In this document: positions 15,813 through 54,035 of the stretch, in pieces
Layout of the letters: each line of letters starts with the position of its first letter
Position numbering within the stretch: the first letter of the stretch is position 1
Source: an uncultured delta proteobacterium
GTDB lineage: Bacteria > Desulfobacterota > Binatia > DP-6
DNA: 64,000 bases
Assembly: GCA_963815115.1 (NCBI GenBank)
Contig: CAWFFN010000005.1
Location: forward strand, 1-64,000
Reading direction: 5' to 3'
Notes under the pieces: model-generated
The model's input: the letters and a program-made list of their open reading frames with translations, nothing else
Database searches by the model: none
Told to the model about the DNA's origin: nothing
Position numbers and translations under genes: made by a program

Positions 15813-15844
15813 GAGCGTTTTCCCTCCTGGTTCGCGAAGAATCG

Positions 15845-15860
15845 GGCAGGCACCATGCCA
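15845..15860 (-). promoter_or_regulatory. sigma54 promoter for BON copy 1
   Basis: TGGCATGGTGCCTGCC (GG-N10-GC). Confidence 0.6.
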
Positions 15861-15956
15861 ACCACAATCCTCCGTTCTGCGCAGCTCACCACGTTCCGCG
15901 TCCGTGAGGAGCGCCTAGAGGCGGGGGAGCTGCTCCCCCGCCTGTCTCGTTGAATC

Positions 15957-16439
15957 TCACGCAGCGGCAGCGACCTGCCGCTCCCCGCGCAACGCGCAGA
16001 TCGCGCCGAGCGTCTCGGCGACGTCGTCGGCGGGGATCTCGCGCTTACTCGACGTCCCCCGCTCCCGAGCGGCCTCCCGGGCGATGTCGTTGAGCGAGAG
16101 AAGGCCGATGACATGGCTCTCCGCATCGACTACCGGCAGCCGCCGCACCTGTGCGGCGCGCATGATGCTCTCGGCCTCGGCGATGGTATCCGTCGCCCGG
16201 CACGAGCGCAGGTCGCGCGCCATGGCGGTTCCCACGCGCAGATGAGTGAGGGGGCCGCCCTGGGTGTACGCCGCCATGCAGACGTCGCGATCGGTGATCA
16301 TGCCCATCCCCCGTCCCTCGTCGTCGACGATGGGGACGCAGCCGCAGTCGTTCTCCCACATCAGCTGCGCGGCACGATCCAGACTGTCACTCGACCGGCA
16401 CGTCTTGACGTTCCGGTTCATCACTTGCTCGACTTTCAT
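15957..16439 (-). CDS. CBS-domain protein (copy 1)
   Basis: MWENDCGCVPIV, GMITDRD, VRRLPVVD. Confidence 0.92.
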   Translation of the reverse strand: MKVEQVMNRNVKTCRSSDSLDRAAQLMWENDCGCVPIVDDEGRGMGMITDRDVCMAAYTQGGPLTHLRVGTAMARDLRSCRATDTIAEAESIMRAAQVRRLPVVDAESHVIGLLSLNDIAREAARERGTSSKREIPADDVAETLGAICALRGERQVAAAA

Positions 16440-16467
16440 GAGGTCCTCCTCGAGGGGCGGCCGCCCC

Positions 16468-16902
16468 TCAGTGTACCGAGACGTCGACGCGGTGTGCCTT
16501 CGCCTGTGCGGCCTTGGGCAGGGTGATTCGGAGGATGCCCTGTTTGAGTTCCGCGCTCGCCTTCGCCGGATCGACGTCGGCGGGCAACGCAACCGTGCGC
16601 TGGAATGCGCCGTAGCGGATCTCCTGGCGATAGTAGTTCTTCTTCTTCTCTTCCGTCTCCTTTCGTGTCTCGCCGCGTACCGTGACTTCGTCCTCGGTGA
16701 CCGAGACGTGGAGCTGATCCTTCTCCACTCCCGGCACCTCCAGCTTCACGGTCACGTCGCCATCGGACTCGCTGACCTCTGCCGCCGGTTCGAGCGGCCC
16801 TCCCTCGCCCTCGTGGGTCCCGAGAAACTCCCGGAAGAAGTCCTCGAACAGGTCGCGGCGCGCGAGCGAATGCAGCGGCCGCCATGGTGTGAGTGCCTTC
16901 AT
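16468..16902 (-). CDS. Hsp20/alpha-crystallin small heat-shock protein (copy 1)
   Basis: EVPGVEK, EIRYGAFQRTVALP, GILRITLPK. Confidence 0.95.
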   Translation of the reverse strand: MKALTPWRPLHSLARRDLFEDFFREFLGTHEGEGGPLEPAAEVSESDGDVTVKLEVPGVEKDQLHVSVTEDEVTVRGETRKETEEKKKNYYRQEIRYGAFQRTVALPADVDPAKASAELKQGILRITLPKAAQAKAHRVDVSVH

Positions 16903-16940
16903 GATGCCTCCTCGTTGGTGGGTCTCTTCAGGCACTCTCT

Positions 16941-17031
16941 CGCAAAGGCCGGGCCATGAGGCTTCGGCATCCGCGCGTCGATGATTCCCGGGAATGCGAA
17001 GGCAGGCGCCAGTGCGTTCTCAGGTTCGCCT
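16941..17031 (-). promoter_or_regulatory. sigma54 promoter plus tandem upstream activator-like sites for hsp20 copy 1
   Basis: TGGCCCGGCCTTTGCG at 16941-16956; TCCCG-N4-TGCGA at 16986 and TCTCA-N4-CGCCT at 17018. Confidence 0.65.
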
Positions 17032-31833: not shown

Positions 31834-34800
31834 CTACCCCATTGTGACCTCGACCTCGTGGAGACGGCCGTCATGCAGGGCAGGCAGGACCGGTTGCGCG
31901 AGCGGCGAGCCGTCGAGCAGTACCGCGGCGATGCCGCGGCTGACGCCTCGCGGATTCGCGACGCGAATCCTGAACGAGGTGGCGCCGTCGTGCAGCGTCA
32001 CCTCGAATCCCGACCAGTGTCGCGGAATGCACGGATCGATCCGCCATGCGCCATGGTCGGGACGGATGCCGAGAAGCACCTCGATGCCGAAGCGATAGGC
32101 CCATCCCGCCGCACCCGTGTACCACGTCCATCCGCCGCGGCCGGTCCAGGGCGCAGCGCCGTATACGTCGGCCGCCAGAACATAGGGTTCCACGCGATAC
32201 CGCTCCACCGCCTCGCTCGTGCCGGCGTGGTGGACGGGAAGGAGCTTCTGGAACAGTGCGACCGTCTGGTCTGCCTCGCCGAGCTCGGCCAGTGCCCACA
32301 GGAACCAGATGGCGGCATGCGTGTACTGTCCGCCGTTTTCCCGCACCCCGGGCGGGTAGGCCTTGATGTAGCCGGGGTCGGCGGTGCCGCGATCGAACGG
32401 CGGGGCGAGGAGCAGGATGAGACCGTCATCCTCCCGGACGAGGTGCCGGCGCGCCGCGTCCATGGCCGCCGTCGCGCGCTGCGGGTCGGCTGCCGATGCG
32501 AGCACGGCCCAGGCCTGCGAGAGCGAATCGATCTGGCACTCGGCGCTGGCAGCGGACCCGAGCGGGGTATCGTCGTCGTAGTACCCCCGGCGATACCATT
32601 CGCCATCCCACGCCGATGCCTCGAGCGCCTGGCGCAACGCCTCGGCACGCTGACGCAGCTGGGCGGCGCGCCCAACCTCCTCCATGCGCTCGCAGAGGGG
32701 AGCGAAGCGGGTGAGCGTCGCGTGCAGGAACCAGCCGAGCCAGACGCTCTCTCCACGTCCGCGATTCCCGACCCGATCCATCCCGTCGTTCCAGTCGCCG
32801 CTGCCGAAAAGCGGCAGGCCGTGCGGCCCGGCCGTCTGTCCGCGCTCGATCGCCGCGACGCAGTGCCGGTACAAAGTTGCCCGCTGCTCGGTGAACGGAA
32901 AGCGCTCGTAGCGCGCCGCCTGCTCGGGGCGGAGGATCTCACCCTTCACGAATCCGATTTCTTCACGGAGGATCGTCTCGTCGCCCGTGGCAGTCACATA
33001 GAAGGCGGTCACGAACGGCAACCAGAGCAGATCATCGGAGCAGCGCGTGCGGACGCCTGCCCCGGAATGCGGGTGCCACCAATGGAGCACGTCGCCCGCC
33101 TCGAACTGGTGCCGCGCGGCCTCGAGGATGTGGGACCGACACGCTGCGGGCGCCGCGTGAAGCAGCGCGGTCACGTCCTGCAGTTGATCGCGAAACCCGA
33201 AGGCGCCTCCGGGCTGATAGAAACCCGCTCGTGCCCAGAGTCGACTGACGAGCGTCTGATAGAGGAGCCAGCGGTTCAGCATCAGGTCGAGCGCCGGGTC
33301 GGGCGTGCGCACCTGGACCGTGCGGAGCAGCGACTCCCACTGCTCCGTGACGGCGACCCGGGCGGACTCGACGTTCGCGCGGTCCCGATACCTCGTGATC
33401 AGCGCGGCCGCCTCGTCGCGGGAGCGGGCCTGACCGAGCAGGAAATGCACGTCCGCGGTCGCGCCGGGCGCGAGATCGATGTGGACCTGGAGCGCCGCGC
33501 ACGGATCGAGGCCGGCGCGAACGGTGCTCGCGAGGCCGATGCGCTGGAGGGCCAGCGGGCGCGCGCGGCTCCCGTGCCGGCCCAGGAACTCGGCGCGGTC
33601 GGCCGTCAGTCCGTGGAGCCTTTCGCTCGCAGCTGCAAATGCGATGCGGTCGCTGAAGTCCGTGCTCCAGGGGTTCCGCGCGAGCAGCGCTTCCGATGCG
33701 GGGTCGAACTCCGGGACGACGAACGCCTGCGTCGTGTCGCGCGTCGCCCCGAGCACCCACTCGACGTAGTAGGTCGCGGTCACGCGGCGGGGGCGATCGA
33801 GACGATTCGTCACCTGGAGCTGGACGATCTTGACGGGATCGTTCAGCGGAACCCACATGCGCACGTGCTGATCGAGCCCCCGGCAGCGATGATGGAAGGT
33901 AGTGTAGCCCGCGCCGTGCCGGACCTGGTACGAGCCGGGGCCTGGTGCGGGCAGCGGCGTGGGGGACCAGACGGCGGCCGTCTCCTCGTCGCGGAGATAG
34001 AGAGTCTCCCCTGGCTCGTCCCGCACCGGGTCGTTCCGCCACGGCGTGAGCCGATTCTCGCCGCTGTGTTCACCCCACGTCGAGCCGCCGCCGGACTCGG
34101 ACATGATGAAGCCGAAGTGGGGGTTGGCGACGACGTTCACCCAGGGCGCAGGGGTGACGTCGGTCGGCCCGAGATGAACGACGTACTCGTGGCCATCTGG
34201 AGTGAACCCTCCGAAGCCGTTGTCGTACAGGAGGCCTTCGGGGCGGTCGAGCGGCTCGGGCACCGCCGTGTCGGGCAAGGTGGGAACGAGCGGCGGCAGG
34301 CGGGCAGGCTCCTCGGTCAGCTGCGCGAGGTCACCCGCGAGGTCGGTCGGGGACGCATCGAGGACCACGCGTGCCGCGGCGAGGAGCAACGTGCGGTCGG
34401 CCTCCGGGATGTGGGCGGTGCGGAGGAGGAAGACGCCCCCCGTCTGGTCGCGTGACACCTCGGCGCCCGCACGAGAGATGGCGCGCGCGATCCGGTCCTC
34501 CACGTCTTCTGCGTAGCCAGCCGCATGTTCGGCGAGAATGACGACGTCGACCGCCATGCCCCGTCGGCGCCAGAGGCGGTGCACCCGAAGCACGAAGCGC
34601 AGGAGCGGGGTGTCCTCCGTCCCGGCGATCCGCACGAGCAGGATCGGGAGGTCACCGGAGATGGCGTATCGCCAGAGGCCCGGCTGACCGAGACGGTTGC
34701 GACCGAGCACGTCGGAAGGGGCGCGCAGCGCGTGGTGGGGATAGATCATGAGCGAGAGCAGCTTCTGGGCAAGGCGGAGATCGCGCGGCGCGAGCCCGAG

Positions 34801-37800
34801 GTCGGCGGCCTCCACCTCGGCGTTTTGCCGGGCGAGCTCGAACGGCCACTCGAGGTTGTGGAGCGAGCGGTAGCGGCGCGCGAGGGCAACGGCGGCCTCG
34901 CGCGAGTCGGCGGCGAGGAAGATGTACGCGAGCGTCACCTGTCGATGTGGCGGCAGCTCGATCTCGCCCGACAGTGCCATGGCCGGATCGAGCGTGGCGC
35001 CCACGGTACCAGCCGGACGTCGGCCGGCTTCCGCGAACGCAGCCGGGCATGGGGCATCTCGGCGTCGCCCGAGAAATCGCTCGCGCGAGCTCTCGTACGC
35101 CGTGGGCGCGGGCCGCCGGCTGCCCAGCACCATCATGTGCAGGAGCCAGCCGGACGCACTGCCGGTGCCAGGACGGCGGTGGAACACCAGGGCGTGCAGC
35201 TCGGGCAGGTACTCACTCTCGACGAATAGCTTGCTGAAGGCCGGATGGCGGCGGTCCGCGGCCTCGTCGCCGAGGACGACCTCGGCATAGCTCGTGATCT
35301 CGAGCTGGCGTCGCAGGCCGCTCTCGTTCGCCAGCGTTACCTCGCGGATCTCGACGTCGTCGTCCGGGGCCACGCACAGGCGCTGCACCAGCGCAATCGT
35401 CCCGACCCGGTGGCGGATCTCCGCCATGTGCGCGTGGAAGAGCACCTCCGATCCGCCAGACGTCGACGACCAGACGTCGCCGGTCACGAGATCGCGCAGG
35501 TAGAGACGGAAGCCACGGTCATCCAGCGTCGTGTCGGACTCCCAGCGCGTGAGCGAGACGTTCTTCCATCGACTGACGCTGCCGGTCTCGGTCACCATTG
35601 CGTGGTAGCGGCCGTTCGACAGCACATGGGCCTGCGGGAAGGCAGCGTTCCGCGGGGCGGCCCAGGGCTCGATCCGCGTGCGCCGGCGCACCGCAACAGG
35701 AGGGCGCTCCAGCGTGAGCCGGGGGTGCTCGACCGGGGCGGTCTCGGTCGGGAGCTCGAAGAGGAGCGGCTCGGCGGTCTGTACGATGGGTTCTGCGTGG
35801 AAGCGGCGCACCATGGCGCTCGCGTTCAGCACGTTGTCGAGTGCGGCGAGGATCATGCCCTGGTGATGCGCCATGAAGGAGTGAACCATGGCCCGCTCTT
35901 CGCCGGGTGGCAGTCGTGATCGCGTGCAGTCGAGCGCCTCGTAGAGACCGTAGCGCCCCGCGAGACCGAGGGCTTCGAGGCGCCGCAGATTGGCGAGCGC
36001 AGCGCGCGGCACGTACGGCAGCGCGAGCACGCAGGCATAGGGGGCGATGACGAGGTCGTCTTCCAGGCCACGCTGGAAGCCGAGGTCCGGCACGCCAAAG
36101 GCCCGGTACTGGTAGTTCTGATGCGCGTCGAACTGGTGGTACCCTGCCTCCGAGATGCCCCACGGCACGCCACGACGCTTGCCGTAGGCAATTTGCACGT
36201 CGATCGCGGCAACGCATCCGCGACCGATGAGGCTGTTCTCGCCCTCCCGCATGAGGAGCGGCGGCATGAGGTACTCGAACATGGTCCCGCTCCACGAGAG
36301 CAGCGTCCGCAGTCCATCGAAGCGGCCGAACGGACGGCCGAGATGGAGCCAGTGCTCCTCGGGCACCTCGCCCTTCGCGATGGCGAGGAAGCTCGCGAGC
36401 CGCGCCTCCGAGGCGAGGAGGTCATAGTGGTGCTCGTCCGGGGAGCCCGCGGTGACGCTGTAGCCGATGTGCAAGAGGTGGCGGCGCTCGTCGTAGAGCC
36501 ACGCGAAGTCCATCTCGAGAAAGAGTTCCTCCGCCTGCCGGCCGAGCGCCGCGAGGGTGTCCAGGAGGCTCTGGCCGCCTGCGCGCGCCTGCAGGAGGGT
36601 CCGGGCGAGACCTGCCGTCCAGGTCCTCGCGTCGATCGCCGCGACGTCGCCGTCGGACAGTGTGTGCAGCACTTCGTCGGCGCGCGAGAGGCACGCGGCG
36701 ACCCGCTCGCAGGCCGAGGGCAGGTCGCAGAGCGCGGGCTCCCGGGGAAGAGCCGCCACGAAGGCGGCCCACGCCGTCGACAATGCCTCGGGCGCGCCGG
36801 GCCGGGCGAAGAGCGCCGGCGGGCTCGCCATGGAAATTTCCCACGGAAGAAGGAGGTCGAAGTCACGGTGCAGCGCGTGGATATGCTCGCGCACCTGTCC
36901 CGACCAGGCGCGAAGCTCCGACGTGAGCTCCGGATCCAGGTCCGTCACCTCGGGCGCGATCGCCGCGAGCAGTGCCGGTTCGAGTTCGGACGAGACCCGC
37001 TCGAGCAGCCGGACGACGCCCGCTCCCCACGCGCTCCGCCGCGGCTTCAGCGCCGTCGCCTCCCGCCGGAGCTCGGCGACGCACCCTCCGAGCGGCTCGA
37101 ATCGTGGGGCGCCGTGCCGCTGCGTCGCCAGCTCGATCACGCCGCCGAGGGCGGCCAGTGTGTCGACCAATCCGTCCCAACGCGCCGGCCCGACCACGGC
37201 GGCTGACGCCAGCTCGCGGCAGCCCTGCTTCACGGCGACGAGACACCCGGCGAGGTTCCCGCTGTCCACGGTCGAGACGTATCGTGGAGGGAGCGGCTCG
37301 AGATCGCGCGTATCGTACCAGTTGTAGAAGTGGCCGCGGTAGCGCTGCATCCGGGCGAGCGTGTCGAAGCTGTTCCTCAGCCGGAGCACGACGGAGAGCC
37401 GGCCCGTATAACCGAGGTCGTGCGCCGCGAGAATCGCGAGCTGGAGGAGCCCGATGTTCGTGGGAGACGTGCGGTGCGCGACCTCTCCGCGAGGCGTCTC
37501 CTGGAAGTGATCAGGGGGGAGCCACTGGTCCGCTGGGCCGACGAAGGTCTCGAAGAAGAGCCAGGTCCGCCGAGCGAGGAGGCGCAGGTGACGCACGTCC
37601 TCGTCCACGAGCGGCTCCGTCTTCCGTCGTCGCGGTTGGCTCACGCGCGCCGCAATCTCGGGGGATACGAGCCAGAGCAACACGAGCGGCAACGCCGCAG
37701 GAAGGGCGGTCGGGCGGAGGAGCACGAGAGCAACCGCCGCGGCGACGGCGAGGAGCGGAGCCGTCATCATCTCGTGCCAGAACCGGCGCGCCGAGGTGTC

Positions 37801-40332
37801 TCCTCCGACGGCGCGGGCGGTTGCGGCTGCCGAGGTCCACTGGAGGAGCCGACGGCGGCTCACGGCCAAGCGAAAGAGCGTGCGCGCGATGGCGTCGCTC
37901 AGGACGACCGATCGGTGTGCCAGCAACACTGTGTGCAGCACCCACAAAGCGATCGACCGGCGGGCGTGCTCCAGCACGCTCCGCAAACTGCGTGACGGGG
38001 CCCTGAAGATGCGGATCGAGAGCAGCCCCTCCGCCGTCTCGGTCAGTGCGGGCGCGGCGAGTGCCAAGAGTGCGACCGCGGTCCACACCACGGGGCTGCC
38101 CGGCAGGCCGAACCACGCGACGAGGAGGAACCCGAACAGCGTCGGAGCGAGCAGCGTGCGTCGGAGGTTGTCGGCGATCTTCCATCGCGCGATGAGCGAG
38201 AGAGGATTGGGACCGTGCCGGCCGTCTTCGAGCGGGACACGGTGGCCGAGCCACGGCAGGAGCTGCCAGTCCCCTCGCGCCCAGCGATGGAGCCGCCGTG
38301 CATGCGTGAGGTAGTCGGGCGGGTAGTCCTCCAGCAGGACGATATCGGTCACGAGTGCCGTGCGCCCGTGGATGCCTTCGAACAGGTCGTGGCTGAGCAG
38401 CGCGTTCTCGGGGACCCGGCCACGCAGGCTGCGCGCGAAGGCCACCGGATCGTAGATCCCCTTGCCGATGTAGATGCCTTCACCGAAGAGGTCCTCGTAT
38501 GCGTCCGAAACGGCTCGCGCGTAGAGGTCGACACCTCCGTCCCCGACGAAGACGTGAGCGAACCAGGAGGCCTCGGCGCCGAGGGGCGTCACGTCGACGC
38601 GCGGTTGCAGCAACGTGTAGCCGGCGACCACGTGGCCCGTTCGCGCGTCGAACTCGGCCCGATTGAGGGGATGCGCGAAGGTCGCCACGAGCCGACGAGC
38701 GGCCTCGCGCGGCAGCTCGGTGTCCGCGTCGAGCGTGATGACGAAGCGGATCGTGCGCAGGACGTCGGGATCGCCGACGCGAAGGGAGAAGTCGCTCTCC
38801 CCTTCGCCAGCCAGCAGGCGGTTGAACGCCGCGAGCTTGCCGCGCTTGCGCTCCCAGCCCATCCAGCAGCCTTCGGCAGCATTCCAGCGTCGCGGACGGT
38901 GCAGGAGATGGAACTGTGCCGGGTCGCCCTTGCCGTATCGTGCGTTCAGCGTGCGGATCCCCTCTGCCGCCCGCCGGAGCAGCTCGTCGTCCTCCGGGAC
39001 CGCTTGCACCGGGGCGTCGGCCAGATCCGTGAGGAGCGCGAGGTGAAGGTTCGCGTCCGCGTTGGCGAGCCAATTGAGCTCGATCCTCGAGAGCAGTGCG
39101 GAGACATCCTCCGCGTCCCCGAGCAAGGCCGGCATGACCACCATGGTTCGGCAGTCGGGCGGGATCCCCTTGCGGAAGTCCATCTTCGGCAGCACCCGCG
39201 GCGGGAGCAGTCGTGTCACGAGCGTGTTCACGAGCGTGACGGCGATCGTGACCGCGGGCACGATCGCGAGCAGCATGGCGGTCGTGGCCAGGGCCACGCC
39301 GGTGCCAAGCGCACGCAGCGCGGCGAACAGCGCGCTCTCATGGAGCATGGCAAGGACGGCGATCGGCCCGAGATAGGCGCTCGTCGGGTGGCGCCTCAGA
39401 AACCCCTGCCAGCGCGTCGGCCAGGGACGACGAGCGCCGAGCGCGCGGTCGAGGGTCTCGACGCCGGCATCGACGAGGTGGTACCCGACGTGCGCGGCGC
39501 GTCCGCACCGGTACTCCCGCGCCGCACGGACCGCCTCCTCGGCGACCTCCTCCTCGGTGCGTCCGCTCTGCGAGGCGAGGTCCTCGACGACCTTCCGGTA
39601 GCGGTCGCGGGTGTCGAACTCCATCCGGGCATATGTCCCTGCGGGATCCTGACGGAGGATCTGCTCCGTCTCGCTGACCTGCTCGAAGAAAGCCTTCCAG
39701 TCGGTGGCCTCGAGGGCACGGAGGCTCCGGATGCAGCTCGCGACGACCTGATCTACCGCGGTCTCGCGCGGAGAAGGGCGGTTGGCTGCGACCGCTGGTT
39801 CCGCTTCCGGCACCGGTGGGGCGATCGAGGAGGCAACCGCGCCAAGCTGCTCGAGCAGGGCCACGCGGAGCAGGATGGGCAACGCCCAGACCTCGGCGAT
39901 GGACAGTCTCCGAAGCGTCTGGAACTCGGCGAGGAGGCTCAGGGCGCTGTCCGCATCGATGTGGCCGCTGCCGATGGCTACGAACTCGCGGGCCAGCCCG
40001 AAGACCAACGGGTAGCCGGCCAGGTCGCCGGTGGTGAGTCGCCGGAGTCGGCGCTCGAACTCGTGCGGAAACTCCTCACGGATCACGCGGAAGGCCCGCT
40101 CGACGATGTAGGAGTTGTCGAGCAGCCACTCCGCGGCCGGACTCTCGACCGCTTCACCGCCGGCGTCGCGCAGGCGTCGGTATGCGCTCTCGATGGCGCG
40201 CCGGGCGCCGCGGACGAGGTCGATCACGTGGGGCGCCCCGCGCCCGGCCCTCGCAAGGGGCGCGCCGGCGAGGCGCTTCAGTGGTTCGCTGACATCGGCC
40301 TCGTCGGCGACCGCGCCCGGATGAGCCACCAC
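31834..40332 (-). CDS. Cyclic beta-1,2-glucan synthase-like protein (GT84 plus C-terminal GH94), NdvB/Cgs family, intact
   Basis: WMGWERKRGKL, VITLDADT, LLSHDLFEG, HRWARGDWQL, YDLLASEARL, GAFGFRDQLQD, GDWNDG, ENGGQYTH, GGWTWYTG. Confidence 0.93.
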   Translation of the reverse strand: MVAHPGAVADEADVSEPLKRLAGAPLARAGRGAPHVIDLVRGARRAIESAYRRLRDAGGEAVESPAAEWLLDNSYIVERAFRVIREEFPHEFERRLRRLTTGDLAGYPLVFGLAREFVAIGSGHIDADSALSLLAEFQTLRRLSIAEVWALPILLRVALLEQLGAVASSIAPPVPEAEPAVAANRPSPRETAVDQVVASCIRSLRALEATDWKAFFEQVSETEQILRQDPAGTYARMEFDTRDRYRKVVEDLASQSGRTEEEVAEEAVRAAREYRCGRAAHVGYHLVDAGVETLDRALGARRPWPTRWQGFLRRHPTSAYLGPIAVLAMLHESALFAALRALGTGVALATTAMLLAIVPAVTIAVTLVNTLVTRLLPPRVLPKMDFRKGIPPDCRTMVVMPALLGDAEDVSALLSRIELNWLANADANLHLALLTDLADAPVQAVPEDDELLRRAAEGIRTLNARYGKGDPAQFHLLHRPRRWNAAEGCWMGWERKRGKLAAFNRLLAGEGESDFSLRVGDPDVLRTIRFVITLDADTELPREAARRLVATFAHPLNRAEFDARTGHVVAGYTLLQPRVDVTPLGAEASWFAHVFVGDGGVDLYARAVSDAYEDLFGEGIYIGKGIYDPVAFARSLRGRVPENALLSHDLFEGIHGRTALVTDIVLLEDYPPDYLTHARRLHRWARGDWQLLPWLGHRVPLEDGRHGPNPLSLIARWKIADNLRRTLLAPTLFGFLLVAWFGLPGSPVVWTAVALLALAAPALTETAEGLLSIRIFRAPSRSLRSVLEHARRSIALWVLHTVLLAHRSVVLSDAIARTLFRLAVSRRRLLQWTSAAATARAVGGDTSARRFWHEMMTAPLLAVAAAVALVLLRPTALPAALPLVLLWLVSPEIAARVSQPRRRKTEPLVDEDVRHLRLLARRTWLFFETFVGPADQWLPPDHFQETPRGEVAHRTSPTNIGLLQLAILAAHDLGYTGRLSVVLRLRNSFDTLARMQRYRGHFYNWYDTRDLEPLPPRYVSTVDSGNLAGCLVAVKQGCRELASAAVVGPARWDGLVDTLAALGGVIELATQRHGAPRFEPLGGCVAELRREATALKPRRSAWGAGVVRLLERVSSELEPALLAAIAPEVTDLDPELTSELRAWSGQVREHIHALHRDFDLLLPWEISMASPPALFARPGAPEALSTAWAAFVAALPREPALCDLPSACERVAACLSRADEVLHTLSDGDVAAIDARTWTAGLARTLLQARAGGQSLLDTLAALGRQAEELFLEMDFAWLYDERRHLLHIGYSVTAGSPDEHHYDLLASEARLASFLAIAKGEVPEEHWLHLGRPFGRFDGLRTLLSWSGTMFEYLMPPLLMREGENSLIGRGCVAAIDVQIAYGKRRGVPWGISEAGYHQFDAHQNYQYRAFGVPDLGFQRGLEDDLVIAPYACVLALPYVPRAALANLRRLEALGLAGRYGLYEALDCTRSRLPPGEERAMVHSFMAHHQGMILAALDNVLNASAMVRRFHAEPIVQTAEPLLFELPTETAPVEHPRLTLERPPVAVRRRTRIEPWAAPRNAAFPQAHVLSNGRYHAMVTETGSVSRWKNVSLTRWESDTTLDDRGFRLYLRDLVTGDVWSSTSGGSEVLFHAHMAEIRHRVGTIALVQRLCVAPDDDVEIREVTLANESGLRRQLEITSYAEVVLGDEAADRRHPAFSKLFVESEYLPELHALVFHRRPGTGSASGWLLHMMVLGSRRPAPTAYESSRERFLGRRRDAPCPAAFAEAGRRPAGTVGATLDPAMALSGEIELPPHRQVTLAYIFLAADSREAAVALARRYRSLHNLEWPFELARQNAEVEAADLGLAPRDLRLAQKLLSLMIYPHHALRAPSDVLGRNRLGQPGLWRYAISGDLPILLVRIAGTEDTPLLRFVLRVHRLWRRRGMAVDVVILAEHAAGYAEDVEDRIARAISRAGAEVSRDQTGGVFLLRTAHIPEADRTLLLAAARVVLDASPTDLAGDLAQLTEEPARLPPLVPTLPDTAVPEPLDRPEGLLYDNGFGGFTPDGHEYVVHLGPTDVTPAPWVNVVANPHFGFIMSESGGGSTWGEHSGENRLTPWRNDPVRDEPGETLYLRDEETAAVWSPTPLPAPGPGSYQVRHGAGYTTFHHRCRGLDQHVRMWVPLNDPVKIVQLQVTNRLDRPRRVTATYYVEWVLGATRDTTQAFVVPEFDPASEALLARNPWSTDFSDRIAFAAASERLHGLTADRAEFLGRHGSRARPLALQRIGLASTVRAGLDPCAALQVHIDLAPGATADVHFLLGQARSRDEAAALITRYRDRANVESARVAVTEQWESLLRTVQVRTPDPALDLMLNRWLLYQTLVSRLWARAGFYQPGGAFGFRDQLQDVTALLHAAPAACRSHILEAARHQFEAGDVLHWWHPHSGAGVRTRCSDDLLWLPFVTAFYVTATGDETILREEIGFVKGEILRPEQAARYERFPFTEQRATLYRHCVAAIERGQTAGPHGLPLFGSGDWNDGMDRVGNRGRGESVWLGWFLHATLTRFAPLCERMEEVGRAAQLRQRAEALRQALEASAWDGEWYRRGYYDDDTPLGSAASAECQIDSLSQAWAVLASAADPQRATAAMDAARRHLVREDDGLILLLAPPFDRGTADPGYIKAYPPGVRENGGQYTHAAIWFLWALAELGEADQTVALFQKLLPVHHAGTSEAVERYRVEPYVLAADVYGAAPWTGRGGWTWYTGAAGWAYRFGIEVLLGIRPDHGAWRIDPCIPRHWSGFEVTLHDGATSFRIRVANPRGVSRGIAAVLLDGSPLAQPVLPALHDGRLHEVEVTMG

Positions 40333-40344
40333 TCTCCGCCCTGC

Positions 40345-41442
40345 TCAGTGTCCAGGGTGGCTCCGCGCGGCCTCCTGTGCGCGTGTCGACTCGTGCACTG
40401 CACCGGCGAGATCCTGCAGGACGATGATCGGCCTGCTGCTCCGCTGAATGAGGTGCGCCACCGTGCTCCCGTACCGGTCGTTCGCGTTCCCGGTGGCCCC
40501 GTGTGCGCAGGCGACGATCAGATCGACGTCGTCGCGATCGGCAAGCTCGAGGATGGTATGAGGCTTGCGCGTCGAGACGACCGCGTTCGTCTGTACCCGG
40601 ATGCCCTGTGCCGAGAGGTCGTTCGAGAGGTTCTGCAGATAGTGCTCGCTCTCGAGGCGATTCCGTTCCGTGAGCCGGCGCGCGAGGGCGACATCCTCGG
40701 ACGACGGCGGCATGCGCCGGGGGAGCTCGGGCTCGGGCACGACGTGGGCGAGGACCAGGTCGGCGTCGTGCGCGCGAGCGAGCGCGACGGCGAAGGGCAG
40801 GATGCACTCGGCGCGCGGAGAGCAGTCGAGCGGCACGAGGATCCTGCCGAGGCGAAGCTGGGGTCGGCGTGCGGCCTCGGCGGCGTAGGCCGGCACGATG
40901 AGAATCGAGCTGTGCGTCCGTGCGACCACCTTCTGCACCGTGCTGCTGAGCACCCAGCTCGTGAGACCTCCTTCGCCATGGCTCGAGAGCACGATCAGGT
41001 CGACGTGGTGCTCCTGCGCGAAATGAATGATCTGCTCGGCCGGCCGGCCCTCTCGCACCGCGACGTCGGAGGTGAGGCCGGCGGCTACGAGCTGGTGGTT
41101 GAACCGTGCGAGCTGGCTGTGCGCCTCGGCGCGCGCGAGCTCCCACTCCACGGGATCGACGTGCCCGCTCGGGGCCGTGAGCACTCGGAGGAGCGTGATT
41201 CGTGCCGAGAGCACTTTGCCCACCGCGGCGGCGAACGGCAGGGCACACGCCGCCACCGCCGAGCCATCCAGCGGCACCAGGATGTGGCGAATCGTAAGAC
41301 TGGGATACCCGGCGGCGTCGCCTGCGGGCCCGGCGAAGGCGGACCGGCGAGTCGCTTGCGAGTCCCCCGCGGTCCGCTCAGCGAGTCGGGCGACCTGCAA
41401 GAGCGCGTCGGCCAAGGGAGAAGTCGTGTGTTCGAACGCCAT
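40345..41442 (-). CDS. Tandem-domain universal stress protein
   Basis: HILVPLDGS and RILVPLDCS domains. Confidence 0.9.
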   Translation of the reverse strand: MAFEHTTSPLADALLQVARLAERTAGDSQATRRSAFAGPAGDAAGYPSLTIRHILVPLDGSAVAACALPFAAAVGKVLSARITLLRVLTAPSGHVDPVEWELARAEAHSQLARFNHQLVAAGLTSDVAVREGRPAEQIIHFAQEHHVDLIVLSSHGEGGLTSWVLSSTVQKVVARTHSSILIVPAYAAEAARRPQLRLGRILVPLDCSPRAECILPFAVALARAHDADLVLAHVVPEPELPRRMPPSSEDVALARRLTERNRLESEHYLQNLSNDLSAQGIRVQTNAVVSTRKPHTILELADRDDVDLIVACAHGATGNANDRYGSTVAHLIQRSSRPIIVLQDLAGAVHESTRAQEAARSHPGH

Positions 41443-41466
41443 GCGCAAGGCGACCTGAGTGCTCAA

Positions 41467-41482
41467 GGCACTCTACATGCCG
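41467..41482 (-). promoter_or_regulatory. Possible sigma54 promoter
   Basis: CGGCATGTAGAGTGCC. Confidence 0.5.
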
Positions 41483-41530
41483 AGACGCTCCGCCGCTTCA
41501 CCGAGAGGTCCGCAGCCCACGAGTGAGGAT

Positions 41531-42202
41531 TCATCTCCAAGGATCGATCTCGAGATGGTCCTCCACCGACCGAACACCCGGCGCGAAGCGTGCCGCCGCC
41601 AGCGTCGCTCGCTTCTCCGCCCATGAGCGGACGTGGCCAGTGAGCTTTACGGTGCCAGTGGGCGTCACCTCTACCCCGATGCGCTTGGCTTCGCGATCTG
41701 CTCGTCGCTCGAGGGCATCTTCGATGGCTTCGCGGACCCGCTCCGGCAGCACCGGCGTTGTGGAGAGGACCGTCATCGTGTCGAACACGCCGCGCACGCC
41801 GACCAGGTTCTGCACCGCACGCTCGGCATCCTCGCGTTGGGTCCAGCTGTCGACGGTACCCTCGAGCGTCACCCAGCCGTTCGACACGGTCGACTGGATG
41901 CGCTCGTGCGGAACCAGCGCATCCCACTCGAGCGCCCGTCGCACCGCCTGTGCGATCTCGGTATCCGTCCGCACGAGATCTCCGGGGAGCTTCACCTTGA
42001 TGTCGTTCGCGACATCGAGCACGCCTGTTACGCAGTGCGCTGCCTCCTGAGCGGCCACTCGCTTGGCCCAGCTGCTCACCGTGCCGGTCAGGGTGACGAC
42101 ACCGCGATCGACCTCGACCCCGACCTCCGTCTCTTCGACCCGCGGATCCCAGCTCAGTTCGCGGAGCACGTCTTGCTGAATCTCTGAGTCGCTCTTCGCC
42201 AT
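41531..42202 (-). CDS. Triple-BON-domain protein (copy 2)
   Basis: Colinear paralog of 15141-15812. Confidence 0.92.
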   Translation of the reverse strand: MAKSDSEIQQDVLRELSWDPRVEETEVGVEVDRGVVTLTGTVSSWAKRVAAQEAAHCVTGVLDVANDIKVKLPGDLVRTDTEIAQAVRRALEWDALVPHERIQSTVSNGWVTLEGTVDSWTQREDAERAVQNLVGVRGVFDTMTVLSTTPVLPERVREAIEDALERRADREAKRIGVEVTPTGTVKLTGHVRSWAEKRATLAAARFAPGVRSVEDHLEIDPWR

Positions 42203-42231
42203 GATCAACCTCCCATGTCTCGCTCATTGGA

Positions 42232-42247
42232 TGCAACTGCGATGCCA
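42232..42247 (-). promoter_or_regulatory. sigma54 promoter for BON copy 2
   Basis: TGGCATCGCAGTTGCA. Confidence 0.8.
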
Positions 42248-42337: not shown

Positions 42338-44194
42338 TCACTGGGACGGCAAGATGACGCTGAAGACCGTCCCGGTCTCGGGGCGGCTGCTCAGAGCGAT
42401 CTCCCCGCCCATGGACTCCGTCGCGAGCTTGCAGAACGGCAAGCCGAGCCCCGTGTCGCAGCTCGACTCGCTGTCGCCTGACCGTCGGATCGAAGCGAAC
42501 TTTTCGAAGACGCGCTGGTGGTCATCCTCGGCGATGCCCCGGCCGTGATCGATCACCCGCAACCTCACCCGGGCCGTGGCCGGGTCGAGCGTCGCTTCCA
42601 CTCGGACTTCATCGCTGCCGCTGTGCCGGAGCGCGTTCACCACCAGGTTGACCAGGACGCGCTTCAAGAGCGCGCGGTCGGCGACGATGCACGGCAGCTC
42701 GGGGCCGACCGCTGCCACGAGCCGGCGGCCCGCCTGCTCTGCAACGGGACCGTACTCCACCACGACCTCGTCGACGATCTCGGCGAGGGCGATCGGGCCC
42801 CGGCTGACCGGCATCTTCCCCTCCTCGACCTCTCTGATCTCGAGCAGGTTCTGGATGAGGCGCATCATCTCGCGGCACGTGCGCTCGATCTGGAGCAGCG
42901 AATTGCGCTGTGTTGTTGGAAGATCCTGGCCCTTGCGCAGCGCGAGCTGGACCAGCATGGTGATGCTGTTCACCGGGTCCTTGAGGTCGTGGACGATCAT
43001 ATTCGAGAGGTCGTCCTTCAGACGCTCGGCCGCCGCGCGGGCGCGCAGGCCCGTCTCGGTCGTCGCACGGGCCTCGCGCTCAACCGCGTAGAGACGGTCA
43101 CGTCTGATCGCCAGGGCGAGGCAATCCGCGACCAGCTGCAGCAGACGGGACTCGTCCTCCGTGAAGCGCCGCGGCTCACGGGTGCCGACATGGAGAACCC
43201 CGAGGGCACGTCCATCGTTCAGGATTGGGACACCGAAGAGTGAGCGAACCCCGGTCTCGAGCAGGACGGGATCGAGAACGTCGGCGGGGGCGACGGCTTC
43301 GAGCATGAGCGGCCGACACTCATCGGCGATTCGCCCGGCGAAGCCCTTCCCGACGGGAATGGCGACCTCGTGCGCCCGGGTTTCATCGAGCCCAACGGCG
43401 GCATGCGTGCGAAGGCTGCCGGCGCGCTCGTCGAGAAGAAGGATCACGGCCGTGTCCACGGCGAGCATCCTGTGAATCCGCCCGAGCAGCTCCGATAGCT
43501 CCTCGTCGAGGGAGAGGTGAGCGAGGCCCACGTCTAGGGCAGGGAGGGCCGCCCGTACGGTTCTCGCCTCACGATTGCGAATTTGGATGACGGCGGCCAG
43601 GCGCTGGGCCGGTGAGATGCCGATCAGCCGTTTCGCATCCGGCAGGCTGACTCTCCCTTCACGGACGAGATCGGCGGCCTCCGGGGCCTCCGCCACGAGT
43701 TTCTTCGCTGTGCTGACATAGCGGCCGTTGACGCGGAGTAAGGATCCAGCCTGGTCTGCTGCTTTGCCGACAGGGTAGGGAATTCTTTCCCTACCCTGTC
43801 GGCCTCGACCCGCAATCTCGCCTCCCCGGCGCATTCGCATCTTGGCCTCTTCGGCAAGCACCTTCTCGAGCTCGACCGCGAGGACCGCGCGCTGGCCCTT
43901 CGTCAGATCGCGGCGCTTGAGGTTCATCGACACCACATAGGCCGTCGGCGAGCCGCTGTTCGCATACTCCGTGTAGGTGGGCTTCACCTTCGCGAGCTTG
44001 CAGGCGATCCAGCGGTTGCGCCCATCGAGGATCGCGCCATCGTGGCGGACGATCGGTGACCGCAAGCCGTGCGCCGCGATGTCGGCAGCGAGGGCGCAGA
44101 GCTCGTCGGGTGCCAGGAGCGGGAAGAGCGCCGTGGCTGCATGGACCGCAGGCAGCTCGGCGGCGAAGCCGGCCGCTCGAGTCTTGTCGTTCAT
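42338..44194 (-). CDS. ParB-like/HTH-GAF-histidine kinase fusion protein
   Basis: LFPLL...DIAAHGLRSPI..ILDGRNR..AC, SMNLKRRDL; HTH-like AGSLLRVNGRYVSTAKK; GAF (GKGFAGRIA, GVLHVG, FTEDE); HDLKDP, NLVVNA, DHGRGI, GLGL. Confidence 0.85.
   Translation of the reverse strand: MNDKTRAAGFAAELPAVHAATALFPLLAPDELCALAADIAAHGLRSPIVRHDGAILDGRNRWIACKLAKVKPTYTEYANSGSPTAYVVSMNLKRRDLTKGQRAVLAVELEKVLAEEAKMRMRRGGEIAGRGRQGRERIPYPVGKAADQAGSLLRVNGRYVSTAKKLVAEAPEAADLVREGRVSLPDAKRLIGISPAQRLAAVIQIRNREARTVRAALPALDVGLAHLSLDEELSELLGRIHRMLAVDTAVILLLDERAGSLRTHAAVGLDETRAHEVAIPVGKGFAGRIADECRPLMLEAVAPADVLDPVLLETGVRSLFGVPILNDGRALGVLHVGTREPRRFTEDESRLLQLVADCLALAIRRDRLYAVEREARATTETGLRARAAAERLKDDLSNMIVHDLKDPVNSITMLVQLALRKGQDLPTTQRNSLLQIERTCREMMRLIQNLLEIREVEEGKMPVSRGPIALAEIVDEVVVEYGPVAEQAGRRLVAAVGPELPCIVADRALLKRVLVNLVVNALRHSGSDEVRVEATLDPATARVRLRVIDHGRGIAEDDHQRVFEKFASIRRSGDSESSCDTGLGLPFCKLATESMGGEIALSSRPETGTVFSVILPSQ
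43766..43803. repeat. Perfect 17-bp inverted repeat inside the ParB-like coding region
   Basis: GCCGACAGGGTAGGGAA-TTCT-TTCCCTACCCTGTCGGC. Confidence 0.95.
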
Positions 44195-44388
44195 GGTCGG
44201 ACCCTCGCTTTCCGCCCTTGCCGCCGGGAGGTGCGGCGAGGCATGCGATTCGGGGCCTCGCAGGGATAGAACAACGCGTCGGCGCGCGTCTATTGCCCCA
44301 ATGGGTTATACGTGGGCGGCGTCCTGCGCTCGCCCCCGTGGACAAGTGCCAACCGGTGCTCTTGGCTCGAGCTCGCTCCTTTGCGTGT

Positions 44389-45006
44389 TCACCGGGACGG
44401 GCGCGTGGGACCCGTCAGCAAGATCCGCACGAGATCGGCCTGGCACTCCGCACCTAGCTTCGCGAGGACACGCTTCATATGCGCGCGCGCCGTGTGGCGA
44501 CTGGTTCGGCGCCGCTTCGCGATCTCATCGATCCGGCCGCCCTGGAGGCTGAGGAGTGCCACCTGCGTCTCTGCCTCGGTCAGGCCGTATGCGCGAAGCA
44601 CCTCCCGCCATGTCTGCATAGGGTGTCCGGGATCCGTGATGAGGAGAAGCGCTGTGGGCGATTCGCTCGCCCCGACGACATCCCAGGGGCGCAGCGGTGC
44701 CACGAACAGATGGAAGGCGGGGCAACCCGACGGGCGGGAGACACGCAAGGCACGGCCAGTGACCTCCGCGGCCCTCTCCGCGCGCCGGCAAACCTCGTGA
44801 ACGACGTCGTGCAACTTGGCTGATTCGGCCGGCTTGGCGGCGACGACGCGGCCCTGCTGGAGCGACAAGCCGTCTCGGGCATCAAGCGTGTCTCTCGCGA
44901 GCGTGTTCTGCGCGAGGACCTTGCCGCTGGCGTCGAGTATGAGCACGCCCATCGGCAGCCGGTGATCGAGCAGACCGAGTTGGATGTCGCGACTTCGGCC
45001 CGCCAT
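44389..45006 (-). CDS. PAS-like plus LuxR-type HTH transcriptional regulator
   Basis: GVLILDASGKVLAQN; YGLTEAETQVA...EIA...HMKRVLAKLG..QADLVR. Confidence 0.82.
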   Translation of the reverse strand: MAGRSRDIQLGLLDHRLPMGVLILDASGKVLAQNTLARDTLDARDGLSLQQGRVVAAKPAESAKLHDVVHEVCRRAERAAEVTGRALRVSRPSGCPAFHLFVAPLRPWDVVGASESPTALLLITDPGHPMQTWREVLRAYGLTEAETQVALLSLQGGRIDEIAKRRRTSRHTARAHMKRVLAKLGAECQADLVRILLTGPTRPSR

Positions 45007-45099: not shown

Positions 45100-45804
45100 C
45101 GACTATCTCCGTGCGTTCGACGCCGCCATGCGGCACTACCACATCACCGTGCACGACCGTGAACTCGCGTGCGCGCCCTTCCGCTCGGCCGAGGGCCAGG
45201 CCTACTTCGCCGCGATGAACGCCCGCCGCGAACACGGCCTTCGCGAATCGCCAGGTCATCACGCACCGCGTGCGCGAGGCGATGGGCGCAGTGTTCGGGA
45301 AGGAGCCGCGAGCTGGGGCTCTCGGTGATCTACGATGTCTGCCACAATACGGCCAAGCTCGAGCAGCATCGGGTCGACGGCGAGGTGCTCGACCTGGTGG
45401 TGCACCGCAAGGGAGCGACGCGCGCCTTCGGTCCGGGCATGCCCGACGTGCCGACCATCTACCGCGAAGTCGGCCAGCCGGTGATCATCGGCGGCTCGAT
45501 GGAGACGGGGTCCGCCCTCCTGATCGGGACCGCGCACGCGATGGAGGAGACGTTCGGCTCGACGGCGCACGGCGCCGGGCGGACGATGTCGCGCCACCAG
45601 GCGAAGCGCCGGGTGTGGGGCGCGAAGCTCCTCGAGGACATGGAGGCACGTGGCATCGTGGTGCGCGCGGCATCGAAGTCCGGCGTCGCCGAGGAAGCGG
45701 GCTTTGCCTACAAGGACCTCGCGGCGGTAGTCGACATGCTGGACCGCATCGGCATCTCGCGCAAGGTGGTGTCCTTGACGCCGATCGGGAACATCAAGGG
45801 ATAG
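45100..45804 (+). pseudogene. rtcB: RtcB RNA ligase, 3' half with frameshifts
   Basis: DRELACAP, YDVCHNTAK, HRKGATRA, GGSM, HGAGR, EEAGFAYKD, PIGNIKG. Confidence 0.92.
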
Positions 45805-47810: not shown

Positions 47811-48293
47811 TCAGGCGGCGACGGAGAGCTCGCGGTGCTCGCGCGGCATGCAGATCGCCCCGAGTGTCTCGGCGACCTCGTCGCTGCCGACCTCGGGCTT
47901 CCCCGACGCCCCCCGCTCCCGAGCGACCTCCCGCGCGATGTCGTTGAGCGACAGGAGACCGATGACGTGGTTCGCCGGGTCGACCACCGGCAGCCGCCGC
48001 ACTTGCGCGGCGCGCATGATGCTCTCCGCCTCCGCGACCGTGTCCGTCGGGCGGCACGAGCGCACCTCGCGCGCCATGGCGCTCCCCACGCACAGGTGAC
48101 TCAGTAGCCCGCCCTGGGTGTAGGTCGCCATGCAGACATCGCGATCGGTGATCATCCCCACGGCTCGTCCGTCGTCGTCTACGACGGGGACGCAGCCGCA
48201 GTCGTTCTCCCACATCAGCTGCGCGGCGTGGTTGAGGGTGTCGCTCGACAGGCAGGTCTTGACGGTCCGACTCATCACTTGCTCGACTTTCAT
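47811..48293 (-). CDS. CBS-domain protein (copy 2 of 15957-16439)
   Basis: MWENDCGCVPVV, GMITDRD. Confidence 0.92.
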   Translation of the reverse strand: MKVEQVMSRTVKTCLSSDTLNHAAQLMWENDCGCVPVVDDDGRAVGMITDRDVCMATYTQGGLLSHLCVGSAMAREVRSCRPTDTVAEAESIMRAAQVRRLPVVDPANHVIGLLSLNDIAREVARERGASGKPEVGSDEVAETLGAICMPREHRELSVAA

Positions 48294-48321
48294 GACTCCC
48301 TCCTCGAAACGAGATGCACCC

Positions 48322-48759
48322 TCAACGCACGGAGACGTCGACGCGGCGCGCCTTCGCCTGCGCGGCCTTGGGCAGCGTGATCTTGAGGATTCCCTCCTTG
48401 AGCTCCGCGCTCGCCTTGGCCGGGTCCACGTCGGCGGGCAGCGGCATGGTGCGCTGGAAGGCGCCGTAGCGGATCTCCTGGCGGTAGTAGCTCTTCTTCT
48501 TCTCCTCGGTCTCCTTGCGCGTCTCGCCCCGCACGGGGACCTCGTCCTCGCTGACCGAGACGTGGAGCTGTTCTTTCTCCACGCCCGGCACCTCCAGCTT
48601 CACGATCACGTCACCGTCCGACTCCACGACCTCTGCGGCGGGCTCGAGCGGGCCGACGCTGGTCTCTGGCGTGGCGAAGAACTCGCGGAAGAGATCCTCG
48701 AACAGGTCATCGCGGCGAGCGAGCGAGCGCATCGGTCGCCACCTGGTAAGAGCTCTCAT
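48322..48759 (-). CDS. Hsp20 (copy 2)
   Basis: EIRYGAFQRT, GILKITLPK. Confidence 0.95.
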   Translation of the reverse strand: MRALTRWRPMRSLARRDDLFEDLFREFFATPETSVGPLEPAAEVVESDGDVIVKLEVPGVEKEQLHVSVSEDEVPVRGETRKETEEKKKSYYRQEIRYGAFQRTMPLPADVDPAKASAELKEGILKITLPKAAQAKARRVDVSVR

Positions 48760-48801
48760 GATGCCTCCCTCCTTGGGGCTGACTTCTCGAGTGTCAGTGC
48801 T

Positions 48802-53028: not shown

Positions 53029-53298
53029 GACTCTTCCTCCGTCAGAGGTTCAATCGCCGTGCCAGATGATGGGCGCAGCAGAATCGTCTCGAGATGTCCC
53101 TCAGGAGCGCGCGCTAGGGAAGCATGCTGGGACATCTTTCCTGGCCATGGGAAGCAATCTCGACCAGGCGGCCGCCTCGGCTCCTCAATGCTCCTCCTCC
53201 GCCTGCACGGCGCCCCGGATCGCCGGGTTGTCGTCAGGCCCGCACGCGCCAGCGCGCCTTCTCCGGACATAGAGCCGCCAAGGCATCCACGCGATAGG

Positions 53299-53944: not shown

Positions 53945-54035
53945 TTCCGATCGTGGGAAGCTGACCCGCGGATCCTCTTGCCGATGAGAGGCCCCGGCAG
54001 TCACGGTCGACCCAGACCGTGGCAATGATCTTGCA
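53945..54035 (+). promoter_or_regulatory. Tandem activator-like sites plus sigma54 promoter for the site-2 protease
   Basis: TTCCG-N4-TGGGA at 53945, TCTTG-N4-TGAGA at 53976, TGGCAATGATCTTGCA at 54020-54035. Confidence 0.75.

Follow-up and report, generated by a model that had tools for sequence, protein, structure and literature searches.

Does a ParB-type module joined to a histidine kinase work as part of one protein, or have the two halves been brought together by chance? The question is raised by one gene in a 64,000-nucleotide stretch of DNA (hereafter the window; contig CAWFFN010000005.1, positions 1 to 64,000, assembly GCA_963815115.1) from an uncultured delta proteobacterium of the Binatia, apparently a soil bacterium. 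A first-pass annotation, made from the sequence without database searches, had read this gene as a mobile-element-type ParB domain and a helix-turn-helix (HTH) segment followed by GAF, HisKA and HATPase domains, and had warned that the fusion may be accidental. Here, we call the product the ParB-kinase. We found that the fusion recurs in other sequences, that its N-terminal module is related to phage proteins, and that the gene contains a perfect palindrome at a position kept across the module family. The best explanation of these results, which we hold with evenly balanced confidence, is that the ParB-kinase is a selected, working fusion and not an accident of the window genome.

A ParB-type module on a complete histidine kinase

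The ParB-kinase is a single uninterrupted frame of 618 amino acids from its ATG (Table 1), which confirms the first reading. The start codon is credible, because the N-termini of homologs start with the same residues in the alignment and a GAGGG lies 8 nt 5' of the ATG. Pfam assigned the GAF, HisKA (residues 393–458, E = 1.5e-08) and HATPase_c domains, all above their gathering scores. The kinase motifs were also located, namely the H-box with His402, the N-box, the F-box, G1 (DHGRGI, residues 549–554) and G2 (GLGLPF, residues 582–587), so the annotation of this half was correct. The protein was likewise rightly described as lacking transmembrane segments. Its maximum Kyte–Doolittle 19-residue window is 1.52 and is situated in the GAF domain; the usual threshold for a membrane helix is 1.6. 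No PADLOC defence model matched the ParB-kinase, its module alone or the LuxR-type neighbour.

The identity of the N-terminal half was less evident from Pfam, where the best signal was HTH_ParB at an E-value of 0.21. PHROGs profiles matched it at 1.2e-16 (phrog_21315) and at 4.6e-07 (phrog_4715, 'ParB-like partition protein'). An AlphaFold2 model of residues 1–225, built from 100 relatives, had a mean predicted local distance difference test score (pLDDT) of 92.8 and a predicted template modelling score (pTM) of 0.85. The structure prediction proposed in the first pass thus gave a confident model with a ParB and HTH fold. Foldseek aligned this model to Spo0J (1vz0) over 193 columns that span both domains (E = 1.7e-06, probability 1.00). 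The probability was also 1.00 for 7bnk, 7nfu, 8qa9 and 6t1f, and M. xanthus ParB, Noc, KorB and C. crescentus ParB were among the matches. A profile of 46 short relatives matched Spo0J (1vz0, 9.3e-08), M. xanthus ParB (7bnr, 4.1e-06) and Noc (7ng0, 1.8e-05). The HTH segment noticed in the first pass is borne out by the fold and by the profile alignment to the HTH domains of Spo0J and Noc. Judged by fold and profile, residues 1–218 are a ParB N-domain followed by an HTH domain.

Two motifs had been singled out in the annotation, ILDGRNR (residues 55–61) and NLKRRDL (residues 91–97), and these fall on ParB Box II and Box III. Residues D57-G58-R59-N60-R61 are invariant and lie on the Box II 'GERR' in the alignment to 1vz0, 7bnr and 7o0n, with the P-motif GxxR retained as G58 and R61. 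N91, R94, R95 and L97 are invariant in the 100-sequence alignment, and N91 and R94 align with the Box III ENLQR. All family-invariant residues (G43, D57–R61, A64, N91, R94, R95, L97 and Q101) are present in the ParB-kinase. The module family also has a conserved H18...F24-P25 stretch, which differs from ParB Box I.

We investigated which proteins carry this module. An exhaustive HMMER search covered 1.84 billion representatives and gave 22,465 module relatives at E ≤ 0.001; the score fell from 468 bits for the protein itself to 151 bits for the next. Among the top 150 relatives, the 105 with at least 290 amino acids were scanned for domains. Kinase domains were found in only two of them (P0001 and P0010, one clade), N6_N4_Mtase in 27 and MT-A70 in 13; others had Dam, UPF0020 and further methyltransferase domains. 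HTH_ParB was detected in 13 of the 105 and ParB_N (PF02195) in six. In a viral-contig collection, 593 of 600 candidate stretches encode module relatives, and a tblastn search of the module against phage records gave four weak ParB matches (28–37% identity). Because of these methyltransferase partners and viral relatives, we assign the module to a phage or prophage methyltransferase-associated ParB subfamily, in agreement with the mobile-element type named at first. The kinase fusion appears in these sequences as a single small offshoot of that subfamily.

The fusion itself was searched for with residues 1–260 among proteins near full length. Of the 120 proteins listed, nine metagenome proteins besides the window's own carry the module in front of GAF and/or HisKA-HATPase, with 52–88% identity over the matched part of residues 1–260. 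They show three architectures. The module is followed directly by GAF in P0001–P0004 (P0001 being the group of the window protein) and P0016; an insert of about 70–115 residues separates module and GAF in P0005, P0006 and P0039; and the module is followed by HisKA-HATPase without GAF in P0007 and P0010. The ParB-HTH module is kept in all three, Pfam having been run on five homologs. Five homologs are complete and have the module on a complete kinase; the N-termini of P0010, P0016 and P0039 are missing, and P0004 stops before the kinase domains.

The ParB N-domain is 88–94% identical to that of the window protein in the six homologs containing it. The corresponding identities are 76–85% for GAF, where present, and 73–86% for the kinase core. 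These values indicate that the ParB module is under selection.

In four runs, each from a different study (soil, sediment and bog), contigs bridge the junction at roughly 84–99.6% identity (X1 record 7; X2 records 14 and 15; X4 record 21; X6 record 31), and for this reason the fusion is not an assembly artefact. The search for full-length homologs across the junction, which the first-pass annotation had advised, was therefore productive. Its suspicion of an accident is not supported, since the fusion is found outside the window genome and not as two halves that are truncated at the joint.

The insert of the second architecture appears to resemble the segment after the second PAS domain of a PAS-PAS-GAF kinase in a related genome (G010). 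This resemblance suggests an ancestor in which the module was joined into a PAS-GAF kinase, the fusion point lying inside a PAS domain.

The fusion is rare. A search of 40 related genomes did not recover the module, and the kinase fusion was not found in 400 genomes sampled from the class, nine of which have distant relatives of the module only (34–43% identity, open frames of 114–524 amino acids). A search for related loci with the fusion homologs gave one distant locus each in genome and metagenome contigs. In the ESM Atlas (clusters of at least 50 members), the nearest clusters were plain GAF-HisKA-HATPase kinases and no ParB-kinase cluster was found. The generality of the ParB-kinase is limited by this rarity (one species genome and few metagenome proteins) and is broadened by the family-wide palindrome described below.

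Three further observations concern individual sequences. P0004 (412 amino acids, on a 257-kb contig) shows no similarity beyond about residue 390 and is cut short; a frameshift or truncation has probably removed its kinase core. An X6 contig joins position 42572 to 43582 and omits 1009 bases (GAF, HisKA and part of HATPase). This joint, seen with the likeness setting at 80, has 30 letters on one side and seven other letters between. Joints of this kind are unreliable, and the contig, which could be chimeric or stem from another gene, was not used. Two distant module relatives in another genome (L112 and L114, genome G273) contain in-frame stops (one TAG, and two TGA with one TAG, respectively) and are probably decaying prophage copies.

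A palindrome inside the gene

The module region of the ParB-kinase gene contains a perfect inverted repeat of 38 bp, with 17-nt arms, a 4-nt spacer and 34 of 34 bases paired. It maps to about residue 137, in a low-confidence loop between the long helix (residues 99–128) and the HTH domain. The 6.9-Mb genome has no second copy of the palindrome, and the two arms are the only occurrences of its half-site. An origin as a repetitive extragenic palindrome (REP) or miniature inverted-repeat transposable element (MITE) is ruled out by this uniqueness.

We explored whether relatives of the module have such repeats, taking arms of at least 10 nt with at most one mismatch. In 80 viral loci, 63 of the 78 inverted repeats in the module region map to residues 120–149. 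After deduplication, 53 of 72 viral loci have a repeat within residues 118–150, and in codon-shuffled controls 5–15 of the 72 loci have one anywhere in the match. The repeat density is 7.62 per kb in the loop-coding segment; elsewhere in the match it is 0.34 per kb, and the flanks have 0.59 per kb. The symmetry axis has the same codon phase in 42 of the 53 loci, and the inner 10-mers are mutually distinct in 51. The spacers are 0 nt (23 palindromes), 4 nt (17) and 2 nt (9). The palindrome is single-copy in the three viral contigs tested (3/3), and non-viral relatives have one at residues 123–141 in 8 of 13 cases. The in-gene palindrome is thus a family-wide feature whose position is kept and whose sequence is variable. 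Measured along the ParB-methyltransferase genes of the viral contigs (L024–L103, IMG/VR), it lies about 350–400 nt into the module match.

The palindrome is probably the cognate binding site of the module, kept in the kinase fusion. A precedent is given in the text of PMC4409726, where a 14-bp palindromic candidate parS is placed inside the parB gene of a T. thermophilus megaplasmid. The DNA loading proposed in the first-pass annotation is plausible in this light and gains a concrete candidate site. A hairpin in the sense-strand mRNA is disfavoured, because only 2 of the 43 arm mismatches are G.T/T.G on that strand; 15 are A.C/C.A and 26 are of other types. Among the 40 variants of the junction runs listed (308 others), none lies in 43766–43803, which we do not count as evidence.

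Possible modes of action

ParB, Noc and KorB dimers are held by a C-terminal domain. The ParB-kinase lacks this dimerisation domain and continues after residue 226 with GAF-HisKA-HATPase. We propose that a ParB module of the methyltransferase-attached subfamily took the place of the N-terminal sensor in a PAS-GAF histidine kinase, and that the DHp helices, by dimerising the kinase, would stand in for the missing domain. With such a dimer, two HTH domains can occupy one palindrome and two N-domains can meet. The two HTH domains would then bind the single palindrome within the protein's own gene. A kinase loaded on a DNA site in this way, its own dimer replacing the ParB C-terminal domain, has in our view an even chance of being right. 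A complex prediction for two copies of residues 1–225 scored 0.00 against a mark of 0.42 and carries no weight either way.

The link between module and kinase was considered in the full-length AlphaFold2 model (pLDDT 88.4, pTM 0.46), in which domain orientations are not reliable. Residues 221–226, at the junction, are the only stretch with pLDDT below 50, and one continuous helix (residues 346–403) links GAF to the DHp helix bearing His402. Because the tether is flexible, as seen from its pLDDT and the variable inserts, in contrast to the rigid GAF-DHp connection, the module would act by proximity or localisation. Occupancy of the DNA, perhaps combined with an engagement of the N-domains driven by a nucleotide, would alter the proximity or chromosomal localisation of the kinase. 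A rigid helical relay from the ParB module to the kinase is unlikely on this model. The GAF domain would stay as a second, small-molecule input.

The kinase half gives some indication of the output. GAF and kinase are 60% identical to the PAS-PAS-GAF kinase of G010, and the kinase core is 56–67% identical to open frames of 427–513 amino acids in other genera of the same family. Inspection by eye shows a globin-type sensor before HisKA-HATPase in these frames, with a sigma54-activator gene immediately upstream. In the window genome's own paralog pair, Pfam found a Protoglobin-HisKA-HATPase protein beside a protein with receiver (REC) and Sigma54_activat domains; this kinase is 54% identical over 256 residues, with a very similar DHp. 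By paralogy, the most likely partner of the ParB-kinase is a REC-sigma54 activator like those of its closest kinase-core paralogs, and its output would feed the nearby stress genes. The sigma54 link first suggested for the ParB-kinase is one of gene context, through these paralogs and a -24/-12-like element directly downstream of its gene.

Several results weigh against this DNA-loaded kinase. In the order, none of 24 other species genomes yielded the module, which is therefore not a core function. Pfam PF02195 (ParB_N) gave no match even at E ≤ 10. The Glu of GERR, the residue altered in PDB entry 7o0n ('ParB E93A', compared with wild-type 7bnr), is occupied by Arg59, and ParB Box I (the C-motif) was not aligned, the profile alignment beginning after it; for these two reasons a canonical CTP hydrolysis cycle is doubtful. 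Beside the ParB-kinase there is no receiver gene, its neighbours being a LuxR-type gene without REC and BON, and 5 of the 16 positions after the histidine in DHp helix 1 differ from the protoglobin paralog. A palindrome at the same position was not detected in 19 of 72 viral and 5 of 13 other relatives. Within the fusion clade, some homologs have changes in the loop peptide (Q133K, G134A, E136G and V142I), and their palindromes may be imperfect. The excess of A.C/C.A mismatches, which would be wobble pairs on the opposite strand, could reflect a structure on that strand.

Other explanations of the same data were considered. One is that the HTH domain on the palindrome only represses or roadblocks its own gene, as a habit inherited from the ParB-methyltransferase family, and that the kinase is regulated by GAF independently and is not gated by DNA. 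A palindrome in the coding sequence that is single-copy in the genome and in 3/3 viral contigs would fit such a cis-acting operator, and a flexible tether of variable length does not require tight allosteric coupling. However, the ParB N-domain would be needless for simple operator binding and is yet the most conserved part, and the retention of the module on the kinase across three middle architectures would not be explained. We consider pure autoregulation unlikely.

The protein could also be a nucleotide sensor without a DNA role, in which the N-domain binds CTP, ATP or GTP, its dimerisation modulates the kinase, and nucleotide pools are reported in stress or dormancy. The P-motif GxxR and the Box III Asn and Arg are retained, and the neighbours (USP, BON, CBS, Hsp20 and a hibernation factor) are of stress and dormancy types. 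According to the main text of Kaljevic et al., CTP, ATP or GTP is bound in vitro by fusions of the ParB fold, and the P-motif Arg is required. However, in the same text binding of a nucleotide is denied for 17 of the 28 ParB-fold proteins that were purified, and one of its section headings states that nucleotide specificity is not predictable from sequence. The loss of the catalytic Glu, the unaligned Box I, and the fact that HTH domain and palindrome have likewise been kept also argue against a sensor of this kind, which seems improbable to us.

We give a slim chance to a bolder form of DNA loading. KorB slides to distant promoters. By analogy, a nucleotide-closed clamp would load at the in-gene palindrome with the DHp as a permanent gate, slide to the sigma54 promoter region of the BON-USP-GH94 unit, about 1.5 kb downstream, and phosphorylate a receiver-sigma54 activator bound there. 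If this is true, phosphotransfer would be templated by DNA. More broadly, thousands of phage ParB-methyltransferases would load at their in-gene site and spread the enzyme along DNA.

It is very unlikely that the palindrome is a nucleic-acid structure which was merely inherited and is not a site of the module. Such a hairpin or cruciform, on single-stranded DNA or antisense RNA, would have served the replication, packaging or recombination of the ancestral element. The bias of A.C/C.A (15) over G.T/T.G (2) and the viral location of nearly all relatives (593/600) point in this direction. However, 23 of 53 palindromes are spacerless, a feature more in keeping with the site of a dimeric protein than with a hairpin loop, and the window copy is still perfect in a chromosomal, non-phage setting, where a useless structure should decay.

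Finally, a neutral deletion or recombination that fused a PAS-GAF kinase to the ParB-methyltransferase gene of a prophage, leaving the ParB part as a passenger, would fit the deletion products in the window, the position of the gene in a block (42.2–47.8 kb) that splits a duplicated BON/CBS/Hsp20 module, the absence of the module from the other 24 genomes of the order and the inserts of P0005, P0006 and P0039 with their possible PAS-kinase origin, but it is made highly doubtful by the five complete homologs in three architectures, the conservation of the ParB N-domain above the kinase, the retention of all family-invariant residues with a perfect palindrome, and the bridging contigs of four studies.

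The DNA-loaded kinase can be compared with three groups of known proteins. Phage and prophage proteins in which ParB-N and HTH domains are fused to methyltransferases (MT-A70, N6_N4_Mtase, Dam) are 35–50% identical over residues ~17–220 and share the invariant residues and the position of the in-gene palindrome. Unlike them, the ParB-kinase has no methyltransferase domain in Pfam and has GAF-HisKA-HATPase as its C-terminal partner; residue 96 is Asp instead of His, and the gene stands in a chromosomal stress-gene context. The CTP-dependent DNA clamps ParB/Spo0J, Noc and KorB have the same N-domain and HTH fold, with Box II GxxR and Box III aligned. They differ from the ParB-kinase in their C-terminal dimerisation domain, the LG(R/K)GL motif, a ParA neighbour, the Glu of GERR and Box I. 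The ParB-kinase has no LG(R/K)GL, the ParA-interaction motif quoted in the text of Kaljevic et al., and no ParA-type ATPase is found among its Pfam-scanned neighbours. The third group is formed by cytoplasmic kinases of the same bacterial family, the PAS-PAS-GAF kinase of G010 (60% identity over GAF and kinase) and the Protoglobin-HisKA-HATPase paralogs (54–67% over the kinase core); the long signalling helix from GAF into DHp is a common feature. In these kinases the input is PAS or globin, whereas here it is a ParB module, and the protoglobin paralogs follow a gene for a REC-sigma54 activator, whereas the ParB-kinase has no adjacent response-regulator gene.

Kaljevic et al. (2025) have surveyed ParB-fold fusions, and those named in the text (HNH, Sigma70, CBS, acetyltransferase and methyltransferases) follow the same principle, a ParB fold co-opted by fusion and often derived from mobile elements. 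The main text, in both the preprint and the PNAS version, contains no mention of GAF or HATPase, and supplementary tables may list such fusions. The preprint main text has no mention of two-component systems or signal transduction, its three uses of 'kinase' referring to serine- or protein-kinase, and the PNAS main text has none of histidine or sensor. The survey may have missed the ParB-kinase because, according to its figure 4 legend, it was tied to PF02195, which is unmatched here. Our literature search found no description of a ParB-histidine kinase fusion or of the in-gene palindrome of the module family.

The ParB-kinase thus brings a new class of input module to histidine kinases and a new fusion partner to the ParB fold. 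To our knowledge, no CTP-dependent molecular switches are known outside this fold, and the domains to which it has been fused are now being catalogued. If our preferred reading is true, the ParB-kinase ties the occupancy of a DNA site, and possibly a nucleotide switch, to two-component signalling, and it may read the state of DNA. The candidate site is defined as one site in a 6.9-Mb genome. The in-gene palindrome also gives each of the 22,465 module relatives, mostly phage methyltransferase fusions, a candidate cognate site.

Genomic surroundings

The features of the ParB-kinase and its neighbours are listed in Table 1.

Table 1. Positions in the window of the ParB-kinase, its parts and the adjacent elements.
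Feature	Position	Strand	Evidence or remark
Whole open reading frame: ParB-N, HTH, GAF, HisKA, HATPase_c	42338..44194	-	full-length AlphaFold2 model, mean pLDDT 88.4
ParB N-terminal (CTPase-fold) domain, residues 14–98	43901..44155	-	PHROG, fold and profile matches
DGRNR, residues 57–61, on ParB Box II 'GERR'	44012..44026	-	invariant in 100-sequence alignment
NLKRRDL, residues 91–97, on Box III 'ENLQRxDL'	43904..43924	-	alignment
Perfect inverted repeat in the codons of loop residues ~131–143, candidate parS-like site	43766..43803	.	repeat search
HTH domain, residues 145–218	43541..43762	-	fold and profile alignment to Spo0J and Noc HTH
Junction linker, residues 219–226	43517..43540	-	residues 221–226 pLDDT < 50
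GAF domain, residues 227–363	43106..43516	-	Pfam GAF_2 6.3e-17
Signalling helix and HisKA/DHp, residues 364–458	42821..43105	-	Pfam HisKA; helix 346–403 in model
Phospho-acceptor His402	42989-42991	-	motif position
HATPase_c with N, G1, F and G2 boxes, residues 506–617	42344..42679	-	Pfam 3.5e-24
LuxR-type (GerE) regulator without receiver domain, upstream	44389..45006	-	Pfam 2.5e-05
BON, downstream	41531-42208	-	Pfam 1e-47
Tandem USP, downstream	40345-41466	-	Pfam 1.2e-41
GH94 glucan-synthase-like protein, 2832 amino acids, downstream	31834-40332	-	
BON + USP + GH94 unit, downstream	31834..42208	-	
Sigma54-type -24/-12-like element TGGCAT-N5-TTGC	42233..42247	-	between kinase stop and BON start

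The neighbours given in the first-pass annotation, a LuxR-type regulator on one side and the BON-USP unit on the other, were recovered, with a GH94 protein in the latter. Pfam (E ≤ 0.1) gave no match for the PAS domain that this annotation had placed in the LuxR protein, and the N-terminal region of that protein (~140 residues) is without any Pfam match. The surrounding genes are of stress and dormancy types (BON, USP, CBS, Hsp20, a hibernation factor and the GH94 glucan synthase-like protein). The locus of the ParB-kinase is not syntenic in four genomes of the same genus.

Sites resembling sigma54 -24/-12 elements, with one mismatch allowed, occur 11 times in the window against 2.9 expected, and none of 100 shuffles reached 11. 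Four stand just 5' of gene starts (16942–16956, 42233–42247, 53050–53064 and 54020–54034), the second of them some 25 nt before the start codon of BON. A sigma54 promoter for the ParB-kinase itself was rejected; TGGCAC occurs near 44346–44351 with no -12 TTGC after it.

The window has two copies of BON and CBS+Hsp20, which share 80–81% nucleotide identity (15147–16918 against 41531–42208 plus 47811–48776). In the first copy (15.1–16.9 kb) the genes adjoin without interruption, and the second is split by a 5.6-kb block (42.2–47.8 kb) that holds the genes for the ParB-kinase, the LuxR-type protein, an RtcB fragment, CBS and ACT.

The first-pass annotation had remarked on deletion-made genes in the window, and two were identified. 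The nearest REC domain in the window belongs to one of them, a 227-amino-acid open reading frame at 13394–14077 on the reverse strand, which has REC and AAA_lid_14 without the Sigma54_activat core. It is 83% identical to residues 2–162 and 85% identical to residues 311–390 of a REC-sigma54 activator (G000:C12:36898-38163), and is by this alignment an internally deleted activator paralog from which residues ~163–310 are gone. The other, at 45169–45804 on the forward strand beside the LuxR-type gene, matches RtcB over profile positions 262–426 of 426 only and on this match is a C-terminal RtcB fragment, that is, a truncated gene.

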